Shown here piece after piece: positions 15,490 through 64,000 of a stretch of DNA of 64,000 bases (its first letter is position 1; every line of letters starts with the position of its first letter). The stretch is from Hydrolagus affinis (lineage: Eukaryota). A model generated the notes under the pieces. The model did no database searches and was not told where the DNA came from. It was given only the letters and a program-made list of their open reading frames with translations. Location of the stretch: NCBI GenBank assembly GCA_012026655.1, contig JAAILG010000932.1, positions 1 through 64,000 on the forward strand, read 5' to 3'. The position numbers and the translations under genes are program-made.

Positions 15490-15675
15490 TAGAATCATAA
15501 AATTATAGAGCACAGAAGGAGGCCATTCGGTCCATCGTGTCTATGCCGGTTCTTTGAAAAGAGCTGTCCAAATCAAACTCACTCCCCCCGTGCTCCCCCC
15601 ATAGCCCTGCAAACTTGTCCTCCCCAAATAATTTTCTACTTCTCTCTTAAATGTTGTTATCGAATCAGCTTCCAG
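15490..15675 (-). mobile_element. CR1 LINE 3' end
   Basis: GGACCGAATGGCCTCCTTCTGTGCT UTR and TATGATTCT tail. Confidence 0.88.
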
Positions 15676-16104
15676 AAGTAGAGGAAATCCAAGGAAAACC
15701 TGACTCCAGCACAATGGGACATCCTCCTGACATTATATGTACGTCGAGGCATTCTCAAATACACAGAAATAATTATAAATGGCCCTGGACTAGAAAACAA
15801 CTGTTACCCAGGGCAGCTGCTCCTTATCTCTAACCATAGACTCTCAATAAATCAAAAACTCGACTTCTTGCTGTTACTGTGTTGGTTGGGATCTTGATCA
15901 GCTGAGCAGGATAATGCCCAAAACATTGATATAGATCAGTAGTACTTTCACTTGAGAGAAAGGATTTAGCTCTTGAGGCACCATCCTGCATAAAGGGCAC
16001 TATATAAATACAAGTTGCTGTCGTTGTGATGTTTTTATTTTAAAAAACAAATAGCTGTGGCAATGCAAAAAACGATAGATTGCAATCCTTCTTACTTTGA
16101 TGGA

Positions 16105-24793: not shown

Positions 24794-25190
24794 TCATAGA
24801 ATCATAGAATTTTACAGCACAAAAGGAGGCCATTCGGCCCATCTAGTCTGTGCCGGCTCTTTGCAACTCAATCCCACTGCCCCGCTCTCTCCCCATAACC
24901 TAACAGGCCTGTTCTCCCTAAATAAAGATCTAATTCCCTTTTAAAAGCTGTTATCGAATCGGCTTCCACCACCTTTTCAGCCAATGCATTCCAGATTCGA
25001 ACAACCCGCTGAGTGAAAAAATTTCTCCTCAGCTCCCCTCTGCTTCGTTTTGAAACTGTTTTAAATCTGTGACCACGAGTCACAGATTCACCCACCAGTG
25101 GAAACGTTTTTCCTTATTCACCTGTTGAATTCCCTGATGATTTCATAAACCTCTATTAGGTCTCCTCTCAACCTTCTCTGTTCCAAACAG
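24794..25190 (-). mobile_element. CR1 LINE 3' end
   Basis: TRGHRFK...RRNFFTQRVVRIWNAL...AFKRELDLYL ORF2 C-terminus; GGGCCGAATGGCCTCC UTR; (TTCTATGA)n tail. Confidence 0.95.
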
Positions 25191-26364
25191 AATAAAGAAA
25201 TACCTTTTTTCAATTTGAGTTACTTACGAGTTGCTAACTTTTTCATTAAACTATCGACTACCATCCAGAAAGCAGGCTTTGTGACGTACATTAATCTACT
25301 GTTTTATCCAATAGTTCAGGATTAATATTTCAGTAACAACACTACCCTGATGTTTGAGTAGCTAAGGGTTCATTTGCTTTAGCCAGCCACAGTCTATAGA
25401 AACATCTACCCAATGCACATTTCATCATGTTGTGTCATTTAATAAAAATGATTCATGAGACTTTGATTGAAAATAAATGAAAAGCAAATGAAGTTTTAGT
25501 TTATGATAATCAAAGGAGCACACTGTGAGCCTGAACGGGTGTATGGTGGATTATTTTGATGAGGCGAACTTTAACAAGGGCAGTCACACCAACATTTTAT
25601 TGTCGTGTGTACCGAGAAAAGCATGTTTGATAAGTATGAAAGAAGACCTCAGGAAAATTCAATGGCTATAACATGACAGGGTGGTGCACTGTCCAGCTCC
25701 ACTCCACTAAAGACACAATAATAAAAGCTTTATTGCTTGTAAATTTTAATAACTACTGTTCTGAAATCTCTCTGAAATCTGCTTGAATGAGCAAGTGTTT
25801 AAATACAAATTTAGATCTGAATTTTGGATTCACAAACCCAAGCCTTAGAGATAGCTTGTTACACATTGGCAATGACTGCATAAAATCAACAGAGGCAAAT
25901 GTGTTTACTGACTAATGTTCTTGTTTTAACTTGTAATCCACTAGATTATGTGTGAATGGGCAATGCTTCCTTTGAGAATTAGTCATTCCGATTGAAACAT
26001 TTGTTAGGGGATTGGGGTTGAGCAATGGGTTAGAATGCTCTTCCTTCATCTTGTGACTTGGGTTGGAATGAAGGTCAGGATGATAGGTTGATAGAGTTTC
26101 TAGCAGGTGCTTTTCAGAAGATGAAGCACATTGTTTAGTCTGTGTAAAGGGAACTTTATTCTATATCTATCCCATTCTGTTACTGATCTAGGAGGTATTG
26201 GGCACCCAAAATGGAAAACAGTTCCTCAGCAGGAACATAACACCTGTGCTTCAATGAGCACAAAACATTTCCAAAATTAACATCAAATCATTTAATATTT
26301 TGTTAATAAAACAACACCTTGCCTTTGATATAGCGTCTTTCACTCCAGGAGGATGTACATGTAA

Positions 26365-26595
26365 TAATGATAATTCTTGCATTTGTTATAGTGCTTTTTA
26401 CATCTTCTAGACAACAACAACAAAATTACATTTATAGAGCGCCTTTCACGTCGGGAGAATGTCCCAAACCACTCAAAGTGCTTCACAGAATACACCATAA
26501 AATGAATTGACTGTATATTTCGTGGGGGAAACATGGCAGCCAATTAGGCACAGCAGTGTTCCACAAACAGTCGTGGATTGAAATTACCAATTTTT
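26365..26595 (-). mobile_element. SINE 3' half with a nested L2 3'-tail fragment (~26412-26468)
   Basis: SINE tail interrupted after TTCTAGA by CAACAACAACAAAATTACATTTATAGAGCGCCTTTCACGTCGGGAG. Confidence 0.85.
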
Positions 26596-30253: not shown

Positions 30254-30315
30254 GTTTCTTAGCTTTCTAATGCTTTTGCTATTTGCATTCTTTGTGGTTT
30301 ATTTGGCTTATTACT
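30254..30315 (+). repeat. 62-bp direct repeat, copy 1
   Basis: 60/62 identical to 33170-33231. Confidence 0.95.
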
Positions 30316-30821
30316 ATGAGCTGAGGGAGTCATGACAATAACAAGCCCAGGGTCAGGCTGGATCACTTTCCCCACAACTTTATCTTGAGTTCTGTGTTTC
30401 AGTCCCAGAGATGAAGTTCTCTGCATGAGAGCAACTAGTACATGACTAGCATGACTTCCACTCGTCGAATCCTTAATGCTCCCTGAATGCCACTGAAAGA
30501 GGGGAATCTTGACTTGGTGCTGCTCCTCAATGTGGATTCACACGACGAGTCATATCCCACTGTCACAAAGCCACCTGCTATACGTGTCGGAAGTTTGGGA
30601 TAGAAAAAAATCAAAACCAGCCCCAACTGCTAACTCGGAACAGTGACTGACATTTTCCATTTCAACACAAGAAATATTCTTATCGGAGGCTACCGTTTCC
30701 TTCACGAACTTTGACGTTGCAACAACATATATAGTGAATTGTGACTCCATGGCGTTTCGGAAATCCGTGGCCACACAGATCTGAGACTTAGACTTTTCCA
30801 ATCTCTGAAAATCTGCATCAA

Positions 30822-30881
30822 CTACAACAACAAAATTACATTTATAGAGTGCCCTTCACGTTGGGAGGACGTCCCAAGCCA
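30822..30881 (-). mobile_element. Short L2 3'-tail insertion with a probable 17-bp TSD
   Basis: Flanked by CTGAAAATCTGCATCAA (30805-30821) and CTGAAATACTCCATCAA (30882-30898), 14/17 identical. Confidence 0.8.
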
Positions 30882-31879
30882 CTGAAATACTCCATCAATA
30901 ATTTGCAGGAGTATTTTCAGGTCCACTGCAGGGTTAACAACTTGCATCGTCACCCACCTGGTGTTCTGAGTCCTACCTCCTCTGCAGCCTGGCTGTTCAT
31001 TCACGTTGGCTGCTATTAAAGCACTAAAATCAACAGAGTTACTTATATGTATGGAATATGCACAGCGAATGGCAACAGAAACATTCATGCAAAAACATTC
31101 AAAGCCCCCTTTAACACAGGTGGAGTGTTTTGCCTGAGGTGCCTTGAGATGGGAAGAAGTGTCAGGTCTATAGCACTGAGATCTCTTGTCTTGATGGGCA
31201 CAAAATAATCTGACATCTCCAATTTGTAATTTACAGACTGGGAAATGAGCATAGAGACGGGATAAGTCCAGGTATCAGTGCAGAAGGGGTGATAGTCACC
31301 TCATCTCCTCCAGCATCTACTGCCAAAGTCAGGAATACCACTAAGTTGTGATCTGACAGCAAAGCATTTCAGACCCATTTCTGAATAATGCATCAGTTTC
31401 TGCCTCCTCCCCCACACCCCCCACTACCACCAATATCTCCAGCACGAAAGGGTGAGATCACCTACCTGTGCTTCTGATAGGACATCCGGTGCAGCCCCAT
31501 CCATCATACCCAACACTACCACTTATCATGACCTGACTCCCTGGTAAAATGTAGATCTCTTGCCTGCATTCAAAACTACTAGTCTGTTGTGTGGGATTAT
31601 TTTGATGAACTGAATTACTCTGTTCCCACAGCAACAGAGGTATTAGCAGAGGCAGGCGATGGAATAGCCATTTGGGAGCAAGCCCATTAAAACAACACCT
31701 GCAGACAGAGCATTGCCGAGGAGTGATGCTGATGAGGCTGTCAACGTCCTTCTGCACAGACTGTTTGTGCCGTGTCTCCTCAACTTGCTGTTGATGTCTC
31801 GGCTAAGGTTGCTTTATCATCGCCCCCATCCTTCTACGTTGCGATTACTGTTCGAATTTCAGGTGATCAGAATATGGGT

Positions 31880-31921
31880 CTGGATGCGAGCCATCAAACC
31901 CACTGGATGCGAGCCATCAAA
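31880..31921 (+). repeat. Tandem duplication, 19 bp identical, period 23
   Basis: CTGGATGCGAGCCATCAAA occurs twice. Confidence 0.9.
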
Positions 31922-32305
31922 GTCAGCAGAAAAGCAGAGGTCATCACTAAATGAGTCCAATTTGATTTATTCAAAAAATCAGTTTCTTCGTTTTCTATAT
32001 ATTATTTTAATTTGGGCATCTAGTCTGAGGCCATGGCTTTGGCTTTGGATTTTGTTATGGGGTGGACGGCAATTGCTATTTGAGTTATTGTTAAGTACGT
32101 GTCCTGGTTCTCTTGTAGTTTTCTCAGTCTAGGTGGCCAGTGTTGAAAAAGGATGTCTAGGTCCTATCCCTGAAGGACAAATAGTAGCATGATTCCACTT
32201 CAGTGAGGTGACACCATCCAATCCCTCCTGGTTTTAATGATCAAACAATGGAGGCTTGCTCTCTCAGTTATTGTCATCTGATTTGATCAGTGCCTTGGGA
32301 AGTCT

Positions 32306-32572
32306 TTAATAATAATCCTTATATTTGATATAGCGCTTTTCATGTCTTCTAGATGTCTCAAAAGTGAATTGACTGTATATATTTGTGAGTGAAACGCAGC
32401 AGCCAATTGCACACAGCAGTGTCCCACAAACAGTGGTCAATTGAGTAACAAAATAATGATTTTTTTTAGGCATTATTTTAAGGAAACTTACGCAAGGTTT
32501 CACCCTGCCGGGAATTGAACCCAGGTCTCTCGCTTGCAAGGCAAGTGCTCTAACCCCTGAGCTGCAGGACTT
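32306..32572 (-). mobile_element. tRNA-derived SINE inserted in the transposase relic
   Basis: Reverse-complement head, body and tail; adjacent plus-strand L2 tail remnant at ~32575-32616. Confidence 0.9.
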
Positions 32573-33169
32573 CCGAAATGAAGGGCGCTATAAAAGTGTG
32601 ATTTGTTGTTATTGTTGAAGTTACGTTAGAATATAAAGAAACATGGCATTAATTAAGAGCCTTCAACTGATAAACAAACAAGCACAACATCTAGTCTATG
32701 CGTGAGTCTCACAATTCCCAATGACACCTCAGTTTGTCATATTTTTCCCGTTACTCTTTTCAACCTTGGTGTTTCAGTGAATTTATAGACCTGTACTATT
32801 AACCTAGGTTCCCAATTTTTAAATTGAAAAGAAAACAAATCATGGTCGATTGTTCTTGAGGGAATTATTGATTTTGTTTTCTCGTTCCTGAAGATAACAT
32901 TCCGTTCTTCCTCCTGTCAGTCAGTTGGGAAACAGACAAGAAGATAGGATGTCTGATGCTGGGACCATCCCAAATGCCCAGAGGGCGGAGGATCAGTTGG
33001 AGCCAATTGCCATTAAGTGAGAAAAATGGGAAGAAAGAAACTGTTGTACTTAATACAGGAGAGTTAAGGAAAAACAGTGTTGTTTGGTGGGTCTGCACTG
33101 CTGACTAGAAATGTATCCTTTGCAAATCTTCTCTAAAGCTCTTTCATTCCAACCCAATAGTTTCTTCCT

Positions 33170-33231
33170 GTTTCTTAGCTTTCTAATGGTTTTGCTATTT
33201 GCATTCTTTGTGGTTTATTTTGCTTATTACT
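33170..33231 (+). repeat. 62-bp direct repeat, copy 2
   Basis: 60/62 identical to 30254-30315. Confidence 0.95.
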
Positions 33232-36169
33232 GAACAGAAACTGAACATGTTGGGGGGAGATCAGAAGGATTAGTGATGACTTTTGACCTTGGGAGAAGAA
33301 AAGGCAACTGATACTTCAAAGCTAAGGCCTAAAGAATGAAGAGGAAACAGAGGATTATGGGTGACATGATCACCCTACAAAGGATGTGAAGTTTTGAGTA
33401 AGAGATTCAGTGGGATTTAGGAGAACACTCAGCTAATCCAGGATTGGTGTTTAAGCAGTATTGCAGGGAGAATTTAAAGCAGCTTGAGTTCAGAGTGGAC
33501 TGGATTAATTTATAAATAAAAATAAAAGTATAACCCCTGCCATCATAACAAGATTTTTTTTAAATAACCTTTATGACTTACCATTATGAAACTGCAGTGT
33601 ACAATAAAAACTGATGGCAAGTTCTGGCGTTATTCAAAAATGGTCTGATTTACAAGACATTAAAAGATGTTGTTTCATCAACGTTCAGTTATGCTAAAAT
33701 TAGCTATTGCAATCTATTAAATTCTTGTTTTGTCACCTAATGTTGCTTTTTTCAGTACAGTAATTTCATCAACCCACTGATGCTTTTCGGTGGGATTACG
33801 ATGATTCCATATTTTATTTGTAATGTGAAAAAAATATATAAAGATGTTAGCACACTTCAAAGCTCTGCCAGCTTCTTATGGACAACTGTTATCCAGTGTT
33901 AAGGTTACAGCTTCTGGCAATACTGTATATAGTGCTGATACAGACAGCAGAATATGAGAAGGTACGAAAGAGGAAGTTTACAATCCATCTGTCAAACTCT
34001 TTTTACTGTTTAATCTGTGTGTGGGTCTGACTCAAACCTATGAAAATATTGTCTTTCCCACCTGTCGTAATTTTGAAATGCTTCAACAGAATCTGGATTC
34101 AATGCACTCACTGATAATCTAGGTAGTTACATGTAGGCTGTGGTTGCTTTGACGCAATGCCATTTGACCAAATTCCTGGTCAAAAATGTCTCCATATCCA
34201 ACCCACAGATTTCCTGTATGATTTTCAAAAGCTTGTGTCCTACTCCCCTTAACCCAATTCCGTCTAACCACTCGCTCTTTGATCAAAGACATCACCTTAA
34301 ATACATTGTTCTTGTTTGAGTCCACTCCATTATTGATACACCCCATTCAGTTTAGGTACCACACCATTAATGATCCATTTTATGTACCATCCTTGCACCC
34401 TCTCAAAAATGAAATCAAGATGTTATCTCCTACTTTGATTCATTTGGGGTAAATTTCCCAACTGAAAACTGCTGGATCACTGGTCAAATAGGAAGACATG
34501 GGCTGTAAAATGCATATAAGTCTCCTGATTGGTGCTTACCTTGAGCTGATCACGAAACATGATGGGAATTTCCATCATGAACATGCTGCCTCTTCTAGGC
34601 ATCAGCGTAAATTTGACCCCTTTTGTGGGACGTCAATCCATCATTGCATAATCCTATGTAAGAGTCTTTTGCTAATTTGATAAAACTGACTTCAACATCG
34701 TGATGATCAACAATTATTCTCTGATCTCTTAAAATATTCTGTTAGGTGTCAACACCACTAACTGACTGTCTACCAGATACAACCAGGCCTTTCTAATGGT
34801 TTGTCTGCGACAGCATTCATGGGAAGGTGGGAAGGCAAACAAACGTTTGACCGCATTGACCATTTTACGAGTTTGGAAAGTACAATGCAGGCAGCAAGTT
34901 GCCCCAAAAGATTTTGAAATGGAAACCAGACGCCAAATATCAGTTGTTAAAAACCAAAAGTCTATTTTTTTTATTGAGGTGGAAGTATTATATATTACGT
35001 TTATGGATTCATTTTAATCATCATTGAAGCAAGCAGCATAACTCAAACCGCAGCCACAGCCCTCCCCTCACCACCTGCTCAGTTATGTCTCTAAGTCAGA
35101 GATCGCTTTAAATTGACACACAAACCTAAAGCCTGTCATTGGGTTAGTCAGCCGTTTAAAAGACTGCAGAAATGGTTTGGTCTTTTCTGAGATGGGTCAA
35201 TTTATTATAGACTTCTAAGCATTATTTTAACAGCTAGCACTTTTTACAAAATAAACTAAACCCTACATAGCCGTAAAACAATCCATAGCCTTTCTGTTCC
35301 TTTAAAGAGCCAGCCTTATAAACAATATATTTTAATTCTTGCCCAGGATTACTTAATAGATTTGAACAATCAATTGACTTTCCTTCCTTTGACAATCACC
35401 TCACACCAAGATGGGGTTGAATTTAATTTACAAGTCAATCCTGATTAAAATATTTGCCCTGAATTCAAATTAAAATGTGTAGGACAAGCCTCTGTACTAG
35501 ATGTGTTTATAGGGAAAGGTTATGTGCTTGACTGGCAGGCAGAATTATAAAGATTCAACACTCAAATCATTGATTTTAGACCATACATTTACCAATTCAA
35601 TCTCAAGTGATGTTTGGTTCCCAATAGTTTCTCCATGAGGGATAGGAATTAAAGATCTCTTTTAGAAATCTTCAAAGCATTTTATTGAAAAATACGAATT
35701 GGGAATTGAGTTCAAAGATAGTGATTCAGTTGATCTGTTCAGATAATCTGATTATAAACACTGAAGAAGAGACTATCCATTGTGTTGGTGAGGGCATAAA
35801 ATCCAGAAAGATCACAGGTTGGAATGTCTGATCTGGAGTGAATTAGTTGAGGTGATAGGAGGGGATTGTCTCCGGCTAAGAAGAGGGAAAGTTATCCAGG
35901 CTTCTCAGATCACCATACAGCAATTTCCTTGTTTATTTCAACATTTTACATTTCCGGATTTGAAACATTAGCCAAAATTGAAATCTGGGATTTGAAGTAC
36001 TTGTTTACACATTAGAAGAGATGTGCTTGTTCATGTTTCTAATAAACTAATAAACTAATCCAATTTCAGGTTTGCCAACCAGAATTCTAAGTGTAAGAAT
36101 TATAAATGGGCCCAGCTCACCTACGTGAATAAATATAATTTCCATCCAACAGGTTTTATAAAAAGTATA

Positions 36170-44760: not shown

Positions 44761-47700
44761 ACAGTACAATACTAGAATATAGAGTTGATCTTACTTTAAT
44801 GGTTTTCACTTGGAAATCTCAGTGAAGGACCATGCATGACCTATAGTACCAGACATAACTAAGGTTGGAAAGAGTTAGAGGAAATGAAATGAGTCAACAC
44901 TGACTGGAGATCATGGGAGGAATGGAAACTCAGTCAAGCAAGTTTCGCTTAGAAAGAAATGAATTAAGATTGGGCAGTTGTGTGATAAGTTTTAATTTCA
45001 ACACAGTGACCCAAGGAGGGGTGGAAATTGTAGGGAGGTACATCTGGAGTTCGGAAGAGACAAGAATATTTATTTTTTTTAAAAGCAGTTTTGGAATTTG
45101 AAAGTTCTGCTTTAATCTCAGCTAGGTCATTCATACATTGGATCTTTGGGAGACTAAAATATTTGGGCGTCGATCATGAAACTGATTCATCTACAAGTTC
45201 ATAGATTTGATCAAGTTATTGGACGATGGAGGTGGCAGAATATTGCGGCATGAGTCAAAAGAAGAGAAAACTGAAAGGATGAAGCAAGTATTTCCTTTGA
45301 ATGTGTCAGATCATCCTGTTAATTTCCCTCTCTTTCTGATCCCCCATCACTTCTTGCACTGTTCCCACTTCTGATCACAAACTCATGACCTCCTGCTGGA
45401 ATGTACGTGTGGGAATATTGGGTGAAGACAGGATCAGGTTTAAGCTACGTTGACTAAACTATCCTTACTCACTGCCTATCCTCACACAGATGCACTAAGA
45501 GTTGTCCATAGTAAAAACATTTTTCAAGAACAGTTGGGATTCTCCTTAATTCATGTCAATGTGAGAGACGACACCAATCCTGTTCTGTGTGAAGGTGTTA
45601 TAAATCATACACTGTATCACGATGATAATGAGCATAAAACAATCACACAGAAATTACATTTTTTGTAGTATTCAATATTTTATTGAGTCTTTAATTGCAC
45701 AAATTAGTCATCACCCCTTCTCAGCTAATGATAGGGTTGAAGAGCTGTTGGAAGGGAAATCTTACTGAGATGATAGGGGCATTACATTTTTGGGGATGCC
45801 GTCTCAAGCACAACCTGAAAAGTTGATGCTAGTCATCATTTATACTCTATCCCGTTTACAACATCCTTAGGGACTCAAAGAAGCTCTTACTGTACAACTG
45901 ACTGCTTTGTAACTACTGTAGTACATTTTTCTCTGCTCTCCTGAAGGTATTGATTCACGCCACAGGTACAGTTTCATCCACCATCCAGGCTTTCCTACAG
46001 ATGGGGTAATAAAAGATTTGTAGCTGGGAATGGCTCGGTATTATTACAAGGATTGGATGGCACCAAACTGATTGTCCAACTCCTCACCCATACTCCCAAC
46101 GGAATATGTTATGGCTCAATAATCCAATCCTAACAAACTATTTAATCTCTTCATCGTTCACTGTGTAAAACTGTAAAGTCTCTTAGATCTTTTCAGTTTC
46201 CAGCACCATGTAAACAGGAAGACACATTATAAACATGGCGTGTGATGGGTATTGGTGTGACACATGGCAGGTCAGTAGAAACAAGAGGGAAGTGTAACTC
46301 ATGAGCAAATGTGGATCTCTCAAATTACAGTCAGATGATAGATTGCTGCCCACAAACTACCCCTCTCTATTGTGCATGTTTTATTCAGTCACAATTCAAT
46401 AGCTTGTCTGCATATCCATAGTGGGGCTCTGGATTCATTACTGGTGGTGCAGAGGGGGGGAGGGGTCTGCTTCTATCTTTCGCGTCTTTATGACCAAATA
46501 CAATCCATCACGCAGAAAGAAAATAATGCACACAGTCTAAATGATAGCTAAAGATGAAGTGATGTAATTTAAAATGTAATAAATGAAAGTTACAATTAGA
46601 CTGGAAGACATTCTGGTATCGTCTAATAAGCACACAGCAATATTAATCAATATGATTTATGCTGTAAGTGTTGAGACAGAGAGAGAGAGAGACTAGGTGC
46701 TGCAGTTTCTTTTGTCATATTTGCATGTGATTAAAAAATGTATTGTCGAATGATTGCATCATTCTAATACAGTGACTGTATTACACATGCTGCATATTGT
46801 TAGAGATGTACTTGGACAAAATGGAAACTGTGCAGAGAACCTTATCCAGCTAGAAGTATCCTGCAGACTTCAGAGCAACACTAAGCCTCCAAGTCTCATT
46901 GATCAACCAAACTATTTGCAATGCTTTGGACTGTTGCTCACCGGCCTGTCTTTACCTTAAATGTTTTCACGAAGCCAGGTCAGAACTAAAGTATCTTCAA
47001 TGATACTTTTTTGGGGCATTATAGCTTAGCGACCTCAGTAGGATGAAAGATGAGTAGACTCATTGAGCTTTTAAACAAGAATATCTTATTTTCCAAGTCA
47101 ACTGAATGACTCAAGTTTTTATAAATGTTAGTACACCAATAACAACAATTGGTACTTATATAGCATCTTTCATATCTCAAAGCAGCTTACAGAGAACGCA
47201 CGGGAGCTCCAGCTGGAAGGGGGATAGGATGCAATGAAACAAAATTCAATTCTTGTACATTGTGTAAGCAGATCTGATCTAAGTCAGAGATCGGACTTAA
47301 GATGGATTTCAAAAACAGAGAGGGAAGGAGATGAGACAGAGAGAAAATAAATTAGCAGGATGATCTGACACATTCAACAACAACAAAATTACATTCGTCA
47401 GGCGCCTTTCACACCAGGAGGATGTCCCAAGGAAATATTTCAAAGGAAATACTTCCACCTCTGCCATCCATTAATTTGACCAAATCTATGAATTTGTGTA
47501 TAAATCTGGGCCGTGAGCATCGCCAAACATCCCGGCTGAGGCAAATCATGCCATCACACAACTTTCCAATAGGATTCATCTTTTCCCCCTGTCTAACCCA
47601 TGAGCGATAGGGTCACTTTTAGTGTCCTTTACTTTATTATACGGACAATACGTCAAACCTATGCCTCAGTTCCAATAATAAGCTTCAATCTAAACAGGAC

Positions 47701-49165: not shown

Positions 49166-49369
49166 TATTTATCAACTCAGAGATGATATTACAGTAATAA
49201 AGCTAATCTGATCATTCTAGAGATTCCTTTACTACTCTAATAACTGATAATTTAATAACTGATAACATTAATAAATGGAGAAAGTTTGATAGGCTAGTTT
49301 TCTTGTTTTAAGTGGCCTGTTCCATGTTCCTATTTAATAACGTTCTTACCTGAACCAAACTCCACTCCT

Positions 49370-49785
49370 CGATTATCCTTGCTGCCTGTCCCGGAGAGGA
49401 TCGATTTCAAGATCCTCACTCTTGTTTTCACATCCCTCCACTCCTCTGCACCCCCTACCTCTCTGGCCTCTTCTCTCCTCAAAACAGCACTCGCTGCCTT
49501 CACTCCACCAGGTCTGGCATCCTCCTTGTCCCCTGAATCCTCCGCTCCACCATCGGTGGCCGTGCCTTCAGCCACTACACCCCGAGGCTCTGGAACTCCC
49601 TTCCTCATTCCGTTCGCCTCTCCTCTCTTCCTAGTTTCAGAACTCAGCTAAAGAGTTTCAACCTCGCATTCTGTCATCTTCTTCCCCCTCCCCCTGGCTC
49701 GGCCCCAGGATCCATTATTGGGGAGCGCTCTGAGACGCCGTCCAGCGTGGAGGGCACTGTATAAATCCAAGTTGTTGTTGTTGTT
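49370..49785 (+). mobile_element. L2 LINE 3' end
   Basis: LPVPERIDFKILTLVF, 3' UTR stem-loop GACGCCGTCCAGCGT and (GTT)n tail. Confidence 0.9.
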
Positions 49786-50844: not shown

Positions 50845-51500
50845 AATCTATATGCTCCCTCTAGGTGATGTCATCTGCAGACATAGACGTTCCACATGTA
50901 TGCAGATGACACCCAACTCTATTTCTCCACCTTACTTTGAAACCCCCAGTCCCCTCGTGTACTATCAGCCTGGCTGTCAGGAGTTGGATGAGCGCAAATT
51001 TCCTGCAGATGAATGTTGACAAGACGGAAGCCATATTCTTTGGTTCTCGTCATCGTCTTCAGTCACACGGCTCCCATTTACTCCACCTACCCGACCCGCC
51101 CCTAAAACTCTCCAAACTCGTACGCAACCTTGGCGTCAGGTTCGACCCCCAACTGTCCTTCCTCCCCCACATCCGGTCCCTCACTAGCACTGCTTTTTGC
51201 TACCTGCAACATATTGCCCGTCTCCGACAATACCTCACCCCAAAAGCCGCTGAAACTCTAGTCCATGCCTTTGTCACCTCTCAGCTGGACTACGCAAAGG
51301 CACTCCTCTCTGGTCTCCCCTTCACCACAATCCATAAAATCCAGCTCATTCAGTTCTCACCCACACCAAACTTTGCTCCCCCATTACCCCAGTCCTTGCC
51401 AGACTTCACTGTCCGGAAGGGGATCAATTTCAAGATCCTCACTCTTGTTTTTAAATCTCTCCACACCTCTGCACTATCTAAATCGAAGTTGTTGTTGTTG
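50845..51500 (+). mobile_element. L2-clade LINE fragment (RT C-terminal part, internal deletion, tail)
   Basis: YMLPLGDVI..FHMYADDTQLY, WMSANFLQMNVDKTE, VRNLGVRFD, LVHAFVTSQLDY, FKILTLVFK; (GTT)n tail. Confidence 0.93.
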
Positions 51501-51939
51501 AATGCATCAACATTCCAGGCATATAGGATCTGAACGGTATATGAAGGGATCCCACACACCACAGTGCAGCACACAGGTAAAACCCTCTGTAAAATTTGCT
51601 CGACACAGAGACAGCTTCCTCCCTGCTGTCAATTTGAGTTAGGCCTCTCAGTGGATCCAAGCACTCCAACTAGGGAGTAATGGACTGAATATAGTGGCCT
51701 TATTCAATATAAATTCACTGTGAATAATACAGAGCTATGAAGTGGATAGGGTTGATTTATTATTTAGCAAAGTAGCACTCAGCCACAACTTTGCCAAGCT
51801 GTTTTAGTCTATGCTTAGCTTTGGACAGTAAACAGAGAGAAGTTTAAAGGATTTTGTTTAAAAAAATATTTTTGTAAATGACTGTTCAGAAGATGGGAAC
51901 TGGCTTGCATATACACATGATTTTTTTTAAATGTTTTTA

Positions 51940-61408: not shown

Positions 61409-61445
61409 TTACAGCGTCAAAGCTGAGCATTGCAAACAGTGTTCC

Positions 61446-61632
61446 CTACCAACCAGTTCCCCCCACCTCGACTGCCAGAGGAACTCCACACACTGGTTCC
61501 CTGAGACACACTCGGTTCTACACCTTGTCTGGTCAATCCCATTGGTTTGGAATTCCTTTCTTTCAAAGCAAACTCTTCCGATACGTCCTCAATGGATGAG
61601 ATATCCAAGTCACTCTCTTCATCATCTGACAG
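61446..61632 (-). CDS. DZIP1L: DZIP1L exon (LSDDEESDLDISSIEDV...GTSVWSSSGSRG); 3' boundary uncertain
   Basis: Acceptor CTTTCTCCATCGCCAG|, phase 0; matches human LSEDESDLEISSLEDL. As read, the frame stops at 61417. With one G fewer in the G6 run (61459-61464) it ends GTGW-TAG at 61446. Phase-1 donors possible after 61467 (as read) or 61454 (if G5). Confidence 0.88.
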
Positions 61633-62019
61633 CTGGCGATGGAGAAAGAGCATATCGTAATCCGAGGATACTACAATTGTACAAATTCCATTCATAATAA
61701 TTCTCGAAATTGATGTAGTACCATATCACATCGCTGAAATGTCTCAAAGCACTTCACAGGATTTGCTGTAGGGTATAATGGACTATGAATTGAACTTGTC
61801 AGTTTCAATCTGAAGACGCTGAAAAATCAGGCCCAGTTTTTTGAGGCCTCATTTATTGGAGCTCATGAATATGTAACCTTCTCTTAATTTTTAAACACAG
61901 TCCATGCCTCCCTCCTACCACAAGGTAAAGTCAAATATCCTTATCACCTTAGATTGCACTGATGTCATCCCGAATAGCACTCTGCACATGCAACCTCCTT
62001 GTCATCTTGTTTTTTGGTA

Positions 62020-62452: not shown

Positions 62453-62974
62453 CTGGTAAAAGGGGAGGCACAAAAACATCACTCAACACAGAAGCCAACA
62501 TGTCCGCTATCACACTGTCTCAATCAACAGAGAGTCAAATACTGATATACAATCACAATATACCATTCCCCACCCACCCCCCACACAAACACAGACTGTC
62601 TGCTTACAAATAAGTGGGCGGATTACAGTGAATCTTGAAAATTCACATCATATGCAAAGTACTCAGCAAAAAGTGCTCATCAATCTGTTCTGCACTTCCA
62701 GATTGAGTTACATTTCAGATTTCGAACATTTACAAGTTTTCTTTTTATCTAAAGCAGAACGCGGTCTCCTAATCATTTCCTTTGTTTTGCGGATCACGGA
62801 TTGTCTGTGGCAAGAAATCTATTTGTTCAGAGCCGGAGAACTGTTTACCTGGACAGAGGAAGCAACGAGTGTTCCCTAACCACGGCTCGCTCACTGTTGC
62901 TCTGTAAATCACTTCCAGACCTTCTGGCTTCCATTGAAACTTGGAGCACTTCCCTGCACATGCAGCAATACACG

Positions 62975-63005
62975 TGTGTATGTGTGTGTGTGAGTGTGTG
63001 TGTGT
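62975..63005 (+). repeat. Imperfect (TG)n microsatellite in a DZIP1L intron
   Basis: Directly visible. Confidence 0.85.
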
Positions 63006-63063
63006 CTGGTAATTAAAGACTTACAGCTCAAATAAGGTTTTAAGGAGGAATGTTGTGGATTAC

Positions 63064-63278
63064 CTTGGGGTGCACGAGTGGCTGAAATCCCAGTGGATGG
63101 GCTTAAAGGGCCCGTGGAAATGTCAGTGTCTGACCAGTCGTCATCAGAGCTAAGAACTGCTCGGCTCGGCTTCGGTTTGGACTGGACCACATGGATCTTT
63201 GTTGGGTCTCTGTGGCCCGCGCTGGTAACATAGGCACTGTCCACAATCGATTCATCTTCAGAAGTGAACGGAGGCGTG
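63064..63278 (-). CDS. DZIP1L: DZIP1L internal coding exon (TPPFTSEDES...DDDWSDTD...RAPQ)
   Basis: Acceptor TGTTTCAG| before 63278 and donor CAAG|GTAATC after 63064; 215 bp, phase 2 in and phase 1 out. Peptide matches recalled human DZIP1L motifs STPPFSSEEDS and DWDWSDTE. Upstream exons were not identified in the window. Confidence 0.92.
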
Positions 63279-64000
63279 CTGAAACACCAGAGCATATACA
63301 ATCATCAGAGATAAGACTAGGAGGAAAATCAGGTTTCCTCCTCATACCTAGACAATGCTGCCCAGAGATTGGAGGGTTCAGCAGACACAATGTGTGTGGC
63401 TTTGCATTTTGCTGCGTACATTACAGGGGGATTCTCTGATGAAACATGAAGAAACTAGTTCACACATGTGCTCACACTATTGTTTCAAAGTGGTGGGCAC
63501 CACTGGTCTGGCCAGGCAGGACCAAGGTCTCAAGTCAACTTCAGACAGAAAAATATCAGTGAGTGGAGCTTTGGTTGCATGAAGGATGGAATCCACCTTC
63601 AGGCAGAACCAGCTCACGTATTGCCACCAAAGCCAATAGAAACACAGCAAAGCCAGCATCCCTGACCGCTTCCTAATGAATCCAATCATTAAAGCAATCA
63701 CTCTTATCGGAAGCAGCAAATCACTGTGTTATTCGATTGATCTCCTTATCAGACTAGGGACAGGCGGCCAGACACCAGCCACTCCAGCTGCACGTCACTC
63801 GTCTGACAGTGTCACTCAGCAAACACTGGCGATGAATCTTTCACAGAGCTTTAATATGGAAGGAAAGGCGCAAAATTGTTAACAATGCAACTTTGGGCAC
63901 AAGAGTCATTCTCCCTGGTTATTAGATTAGTTTATCGTGGAGTTTTTCCATTACGAAAGCTCACCCGCTCAGGTCAGCAAATTCAACAGATAAGGAATCA

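Follow-up and report, generated by a model that had tools for sequence, protein, structure and literature searches.

A predicted fossil BED zinc finger of the ZBED6 type in a 2.85-kb block bracketed by a direct repeat

The window, by which we mean the whole 64,000-nt stretch of DNA analysed here, looks like vertebrate non-coding DNA, with a GC content of ~39% and many tRNA-headed SINEs. Two copies of a 62-nt direct repeat, 97% identical and 2916 nt apart, bracket a block of 2.85 kb (30316–33169) that holds the remnant of a BED zinc finger, a SINE and dispersed repeat tail pieces, one of which continues beyond the SINE to 32613 (Table 1). The GC content of the block (43.0%) lies above that of its flanks (39.6% and 36.6%) and within the top 2% of windows of the same size. 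The 62-nt repeat is absent from an earlier sequence-only reading of this DNA, which had suggested a dead multi-finger ZBED gene or an unusual transposon at this position.

Elsewhere in the window are two related fragments that, by their motifs, we take to be 3' pieces of CR1-like retroelements (~24900–25200 and 15600–15800, both on the minus strand), and two presumed L2-like reverse transcriptase fragments on the plus strand (50910–51533 and 49298–49651). Two segments near the right end of the block, 32990–33160 and 33240–33480, were considered as further CR1 pieces and rejected, as their alignments to the CR1-like piece at ~24900–25200 were not significant, with scores near or below the null mean and ranks of 13 of 852 and 96 of 3192. 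Two acidic open reading frames on the minus strand (61417–61725 and 62909–63301) resemble the last exons of DZIP1L; they gave no match in Pfam, the Atlas or the PDB. In mammals CLDN18 lies downstream of DZIP1L, and an intact claudin first-exon motif was not found in the 60 kb downstream of the DZIP1L-like frames. A claudin-18 remnant in the 62-nt repeat or in the region of the MALALD string, suggested by a likeness, was likewise dismissed for want of Pfam, PDB or motif support. The host loci of ZBED genes in Table 1 of PMC3606216 are DHRSX, CD96, AGGF1, ALG12, ZC3H11A and LRRC61; DZIP1L is absent from that table.

Table 1. Features in and around the bracketed block, with window coordinates.
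Feature	Position	Strand	Remarks
62-nt direct repeat, left copy	30254–30315	+	60/62 identical to right copy; no third copy in window
Weak finger-like candidate (S..W, KATC..C, H...H, near-correct spacing)	30524–30668	+	16.3–16.7 bits; null median for 3.9 kb 16.2–17.0; not significant
Dispersed repeat tail piece	30813–30889		Up to 8 overlapping matches elsewhere in window; peptide look-alikes stem from the repeat
Weak finger-like candidate (S.AW.F)	30975–31097	+	16.4–17.3 bits; not significant
Weak finger-like candidate	about 31115–31225	+	9.1 bits
N-terminal BED finger motif (S.VW..F), SVVWDYF	31583–31603	+	Six-frame motif scan
C-terminal BED finger half, C..H	31621–31713	+	Other frame than SVVWDYF; phmmer, hmmsearch, profile alignment
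Stop-poor frame, loose likeness to start of hAT catalytic region	31769–32080	+	31 bits uncalibrated; 16.1 bits calibrated
MALALD	32033–32050	+	String located in translation
GDTIQ segment GDTIQSLLVLMIKQW	32207–32251	+	String located in translation
tRNA-headed SINE	32305–32574	-	tRNA-Ala-like head 32500–32571; 68–77% identical to 7 other window copies
PRF	32803–32811	+	String located in translation
Former C-terminal block, fits N-terminal half of a BED finger best (SVVW...C..C)	33067–33135	+	16.7–17.7 bits; not significant
WW...LCKSSLKLF	33085–33144	+	String located in translation
62-nt direct repeat, right copy	33170–33231	+	7-nt copy of the repeat's first bases directly before

At 31583–31713 on the plus strand lies the broken remnant, ~130 bases long, of one BED zinc finger, which is dead and of the ZBED6/ZBEDX type. 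The N-terminal motif of this finger, SVVWDYF, is the sole six-frame match to S.[VAL]W.[HFY]F, a pattern expected by chance ~1.4e-4 times within 60 nt upstream of the C-terminal half. Just before it, in the adjacent frame, KTTS (31572–31583) matches by eye a K-T-T-S lead-in that precedes some of the reference fingers, with P0081 and P0040 used for the comparison. The C-terminal half retains the first cysteine, the SRG insertion and the HLG.S.L..HL...H helix with both histidines, and its second cysteine has become serine (AGC), leaving the four-ligand signature of BED fingers, Cx2CxnHx3-5H/C (PMC3606216), incomplete. The spacer from the phenylalanine to the first cysteine measures 17 nt, as against 11 codons in 83 of 83 measured reference fingers, the mark of a frameshifting net deletion that split the N-terminal motif from the C-terminal half. 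With this deletion and the loss of a zinc-binding cysteine, the remnant is unable to encode a working zinc finger today. In the helix, nine of 16 codons specify the ZBED6-type consensus and all seven others lie one base change away from it (product of chance 7e-4), the pattern expected of DNA decaying without selection. Stop codons occur in the block at the same rate as across the whole window (44–55 per ~950 codons in each frame; window average 5.5%), with no open frame. Taken with the frameshift and the lost cysteine, this upholds the earlier description of the finger as a dead fossil.

Database searches identified relatives of the finger. With the 34-residue stretch 31615–31716 as query, phmmer returned four proteins at E≤1e-3 among 1,835,955,588 cluster representatives, searched without a word index; the best E value was 5.3e-6 and each protein had 3–6 matched stretches. 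Three of the four are named: coelacanth ZBED6 and two four-BED proteins, one from the tailed frog Ascaphus truei and one from the painted frog Discoglossus pictus (the fourth, without a name, was left out of further comparison). An hmmsearch of the finger gave an iE value of 6.9e-6, the next best being 0.27. The W..F motif had been left out of the phmmer query and therefore provides independent support; tblastn sum statistics linked it to the C-terminal half. Pfam, which the sequence-only reading had named as the place to look for zf-BED and Dimer_Tnp_hAT, contained neither for the six whole frames of 30300–33300, for 28 pieces or for 15 further pieces, with the zf-BED gathering score reached in none of them, and the bare finger retrieved nothing from the PDB or a word-indexed search and nothing usable from the Atlas. 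Since Pfam was silent, we tested the claim with relatives of the finger instead, building a profile from 86 distinct fingers in 44 of 54 named matches after dropping 10 redundant mammalian ZBED6 proteins. The profile aligned end to end over 31583–31713 (model columns 6–53) at 38.0 bits, compared with at most 25.0 bits on 30 shuffled strands, a score that is partly circular because the reference fingers had been retrieved with the window finger. A profile that included the window finger matched the ZBED2 structure 2DJR at 1.9e-5, a match driven mainly by three reference rows.

If everything here, the finger included, were a chance likeness, the silence of Pfam, the PDB, the Atlas and the word index would be expected. 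That explanation, to which we assign a negligible probability, is refuted by an E value of 5.3e-6 against 1.84e9 proteins with three named matches all from one family, by the independent upstream motif, and by the absence of the finger motif pattern from all 200 shuffles. The best of the BED fingers picked out in the sequence-only reading is thus real, and it belongs to the SRG..HLG.S.L..HL...H type that ZBED6, ZBEDX and ZBED4 carry.

All 54 named matches that carry this finger type are annotated as cellular genes of lobe-finned vertebrates and none is labelled a transposase; they were drawn from 323 word-sharing candidates, a set biased by its words towards ZBED6 and ZBEDX. Sharks, rays, chimaeras and ray-finned fish are absent from these 54. 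In a per-finger comparison, amniote and coelacanth ZBED6 came closest to the window finger (mean 70), ahead of the amphibian four-finger proteins (mean 58) and ZBEDX-type fingers (mean 53); the amphibian proteins head the phmmer results because four domains are summed. In a tree of finger halves, the window sequence sat on a long, unsupported branch near ZBED6, and we claim no placement from it. The SRG..(H/N)LGTS.L.RHL helix occurs in mouse ZBED6 and chicken ZBED4, with a close variant in frog ZBEDX, in the supplementary alignment of PMC3606216.

The highest per-finger scores against the window finger come from ZBED6 of coelacanth, turtles, crocodile and mammals, which shares with it the SRG insertion and the helix at 44–50% identity over 32 residues. 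However, ZBED6 has two or three fingers, whereas the window has one detectable finger, no catalytic or dimerisation region and a broken frame. Mammalian ZBED6 lies in an intron of ZC3H11A (PMC3606216, Table 1), of which there is no sign in the window. Latimeria chalumnae ZBED6 (P0005, 1543 aa) shows an internal triplication: a module made of a finger, a linker and the start of a core occurs three times in tandem, and one full core follows. The amphibian four-BED proteins of A. truei, D. pictus and Ambystoma mexicanum, annotated as ZBED4-like or ZBED6, have the same finger type and no hAT core, but they are intact, with four well-preserved and mutually similar fingers, while three further fingers are undetectable in the window and no linker aligns. 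By Pfam, these proteins (P0004, P0006 and P0042) have neither a core nor a dimerisation domain, a design that does not appear among the ZBED architectures in the accessible portion of PMC3606216. ZBEDX/ZBED6-like proteins of the LRRC61 locus and ZBED4 share an RG..(H/N)(L/F)GTS-type helix with the window finger, as seen in the supplement to PMC3606216 and in our matches, though ZBEDX-type fingers score lower and ZBED4 was compared by eye only.

The sequence-only reading had proposed up to four BED fingers, of which it called the first three weak matches. The latter judgement was sound, as the candidates scored 9–17 bits, within noise; only one finger is significant. Scored with a profile lacking eight held-out fingers, the candidates at 30524, 30975, ~31115 and 33067 reached 16.3, 17.3, 9.1 and 17.1 bits and the main finger 33.3 bits, and the best match reached at least 17.2 bits in 11 of 39 other window segments. 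The summed score of the top four was equalled in three of the 39, so that together the extra candidates are mildly high and give no more than a hint. Aligning the finger candidates of the window de novo with one another produced no coherent result, and these alignments were set aside. One of the next-best profile matches (~21 bits) falls at 26517–26573 on the plus strand, within a SINE and within the null range. When the held-out fingers were made to decay in 200 simulations, 0%, 4% and 23% of them fell to 17.5 bits or below with 0.25, 0.35 and 0.5 substitutions per site, respectively, which makes it unlikely that the candidates are three sister fingers of equal type and age. As the profile was made without ZBED4 or transposon fingers, more divergent finger types could escape it.

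These candidates bear on the main rival to our preferred reading: that the finger belonged to a dead domesticated ZBED gene consisting of fingers only, on the pattern of the amphibian proteins that lack a core, or to a displaced fragment of such a gene. The candidates at 30524, 30975 and 33067 would then be more divergent sister fingers, and the product a DNA-binding factor that lost its function. The top two phmmer matches and a third relative have four zf-BED domains and no hAT domain, and all 54 named matches with this finger type, drawn from the 323 word-sharing candidates, are annotated cellular genes. The candidates are spaced 0.45–1.5 kb apart, about the linker size in the amphibian proteins, SVVW occurs twice on the plus strand within 1.5 kb, the block is GC-rich and, as described below, terminal inverted repeats are missing. 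Set against these points are the simulations, in which same-type, same-age sisters fell to 17.5 bits or below in no more than 23% of runs (the candidates score 9.1–17.3 bits), the greater per-finger closeness to amniote and coelacanth ZBED6 than to the amphibian proteins, and the lack of a named shark, ray or chimaera protein among the 54 matches. On balance, a finger-only gene is possible but unlikely. A more specific proposal, which we regard as distinctly improbable, is that the ZBED6 clade included a transcription-factor gene, not described before, with several BED fingers and no core, and that this gene died here although relatives may keep an intact copy.

A larger claim of the sequence-only reading was that peptide fragments follow the finger in the order of a hAT transposase. 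Every peptide string it quoted is present on the plus strand in the stated order, and the codon-aware score of 31769–32080 before calibration, 31 bits, exceeded that of 40 of 40 shuffles. Unrelated sites, however, reached up to 58.5 bits on this scale, PRF occurs 22 times across the six frames of the window, and against a decayed-protein background the 31-bit match proved to be an effect of the stop-poor frame and was discarded. On that background the best core pieces scored 16.1 and 14.7 bits; of 100 column-permuted profiles, 61 and 76 did at least as well. A chain test that permitted large deletions also stood at the null median: scores as high arose in 32 and 44 of 60 permutations, and likewise in 65 and 70 of the 103 other segments. 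As a positive control, substitutions and indels were introduced into the cores of two held-out coelacanth proteins, which were then divided into blocks of 150 nt. With 0.25, 0.35 and 0.5 substitutions per site, 40/40, 40/40 and 32/40 runs scored at least 23 bits, compared with 14.9 bits for the window. Frameshift-aware alignment with ZBED6/ZBEDX-type profiles thus detected no hAT DDE catalytic core behind the finger, and because the controls were recovered, a core of this type is either missing or has decayed well beyond the state of the finger. Since neither ZBED4 nor an active hAT transposase contributed to the profiles, a core of more distant kinship could escape them. The C-terminal dimerisation domain was not found by Pfam or by the chain test. 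Placed on the dimerisation WW, VVWWVC ranked 839th of 127,966 placements, and the best alignment of the supposed WW C-terminal block, weak and no better than chance, is with the first part of a finger, not with that domain.

The full model, in which a gene or transposon with several fingers extends to 33165 and retains, in heavily deleted form, a hAT core and a dimerisation domain, could also draw on two hand-picked pieces ranking fifth and sixth of about 128,000 placements and on an L-L before PRF in the adjacent frame, seen by eye. Yet ranks of this kind are to be expected when about 640,000 column-by-position pairs are available, the model requires two deletions of several hundred bases, Pfam offers no match, and the signal vanishes upon calibration. 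We consider the full model very improbable; for ZBED6/ZBEDX-like cores it is largely refuted.

Direct signs of past mobility are also missing. Terminal inverted repeats had already been reported absent, and our search for them together with 8-bp target-site duplications agreed: no convincing pair was identified, and five loose candidates (2 mismatches in 12, duplication 6 of 8), two involving SINE tails and none starting with a hAT-like end, compare with 0–4 in 10 shuffles. Real ends could have been erased by decay. The 64-kb window contains no second copy of the finger region, so that, with ends and target-site duplication also lacking, nothing directly shows that the sequence once moved. The locally high CpG density noted earlier holds as a count, 14 in 30461–30770, matched by 0.34% of 310-nt windows (three such spots); it is confined to that one patch, the observed/expected ratio of 30560–33165 being an ordinary 0.39 against 0.38 for the window. 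We rejected the patch as evidence, given this average and its distance of 0.8 kb from the finger, which itself holds one CpG.

The 62-nt repeat, at 97% identity, appears much younger than the contents of the block, the SINE being 68–77% identical to its kin; it is therefore not the scar or target-site duplication of a hAT insertion. Lacking TG..CA ends, of the wrong length and younger than the enclosed SINE, it was excluded both as a long terminal repeat and as a hAT target-site duplication. Two events could account for it: copying of the 62 nt by themselves, or transfer of the whole block to this place. In the latter case the block would be genomic DNA copied from elsewhere, SINEs included, and the finger's present neighbourhood would be uninformative on its origin; this is compatible with a transposon relic or a gene. 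The way in which a unique repeat brackets the block and the step in GC content at its borders speak for such a transfer, which we nevertheless hold to be fairly unlikely, as copying of the 62 nt alone explains the data equally well. In addition, a second young pair lacks a GC contrast on one side, and short local copies may be common. This second unique direct repeat (3116–3215 and 5411–5510, plus strand) is 100 nt long, 96% identical and 2295 nt apart, the same pattern, suggesting that such copy events are not rare in this genome.

We favour the view, with a probability of roughly 0.55, that the finger once stood at the 5' end of an ancient Ac-group hAT element, whose lineage also yielded ZBED6 and ZBEDX, and is now a relic decaying neutrally. 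The BED finger of a hAT transposase binds the subterminal repeats of its own element during cut-and-paste transposition. That these are short repeats of the element ends is described in PMC10368747. Active hAT elements carry one BED finger and tandem fingers arose after domestication, according to PMC3606216, and the single finger found here accordingly counts for a transposon relic. Ac-family elements such as Hermes and zebrafish hAT-6/7 have a single N-terminal BED finger, as does the window, but inverted repeats, an 8-bp target-site duplication, a DDE core and a dimerisation domain were not found here. One finger, no core and no ends are best explained if an old hAT element of the ZBED6 lineage, with its interior deleted, left this relic. 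The restriction of the finger type to cellular genes of lobe-finned vertebrates among the 54 named carriers counts against such a relic, as do the two top matches, four-finger proteins without a core, which show that a core-less gene architecture exists. Under the relic reading, the element would have inserted long ago and lost its core by deletion, or been a non-autonomous deleted copy from the start; its ends would have become unrecognisable, SINEs would have inserted later, and a much later repair or copy event may have produced the 62-nt repeat. Of the earlier account, one dead ZBED6-type finger stands, and the multi-finger gene and the transposase are unsupported.

The finger is most likely an ordinary ancient fossil, a small one that implies no new mechanism, and its interest lies in its type. 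ZBED6 is described as functional only in placental mammals in PMC2780926; databases also name it in coelacanth, turtles and crocodile, beyond that printed range. A literature search, with most subscription journals outside its scope, returned no such locus for ZBED6 in cartilaginous fish, sharks or coelacanth, or for hAT elements with tandem BED fingers. In a cartilaginous-fish host, the relic would demonstrate that this group, too, had the transposon lineage from which ZBED6 arose, and it would provide a locus for asking whether that lineage was ever domesticated there. Were the finger instead part of a dead multi-BED gene in such a host, it would push the ZBED6-type finger back to the jawed-vertebrate ancestor. 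Separately, the window contains short low-copy repeats at 7014–7059 and 7264–7309 and at 45184–45344 and 47231–47506, apparently inverted pairs and not derived from SINEs, which are possibly the ends of other small DNA elements.
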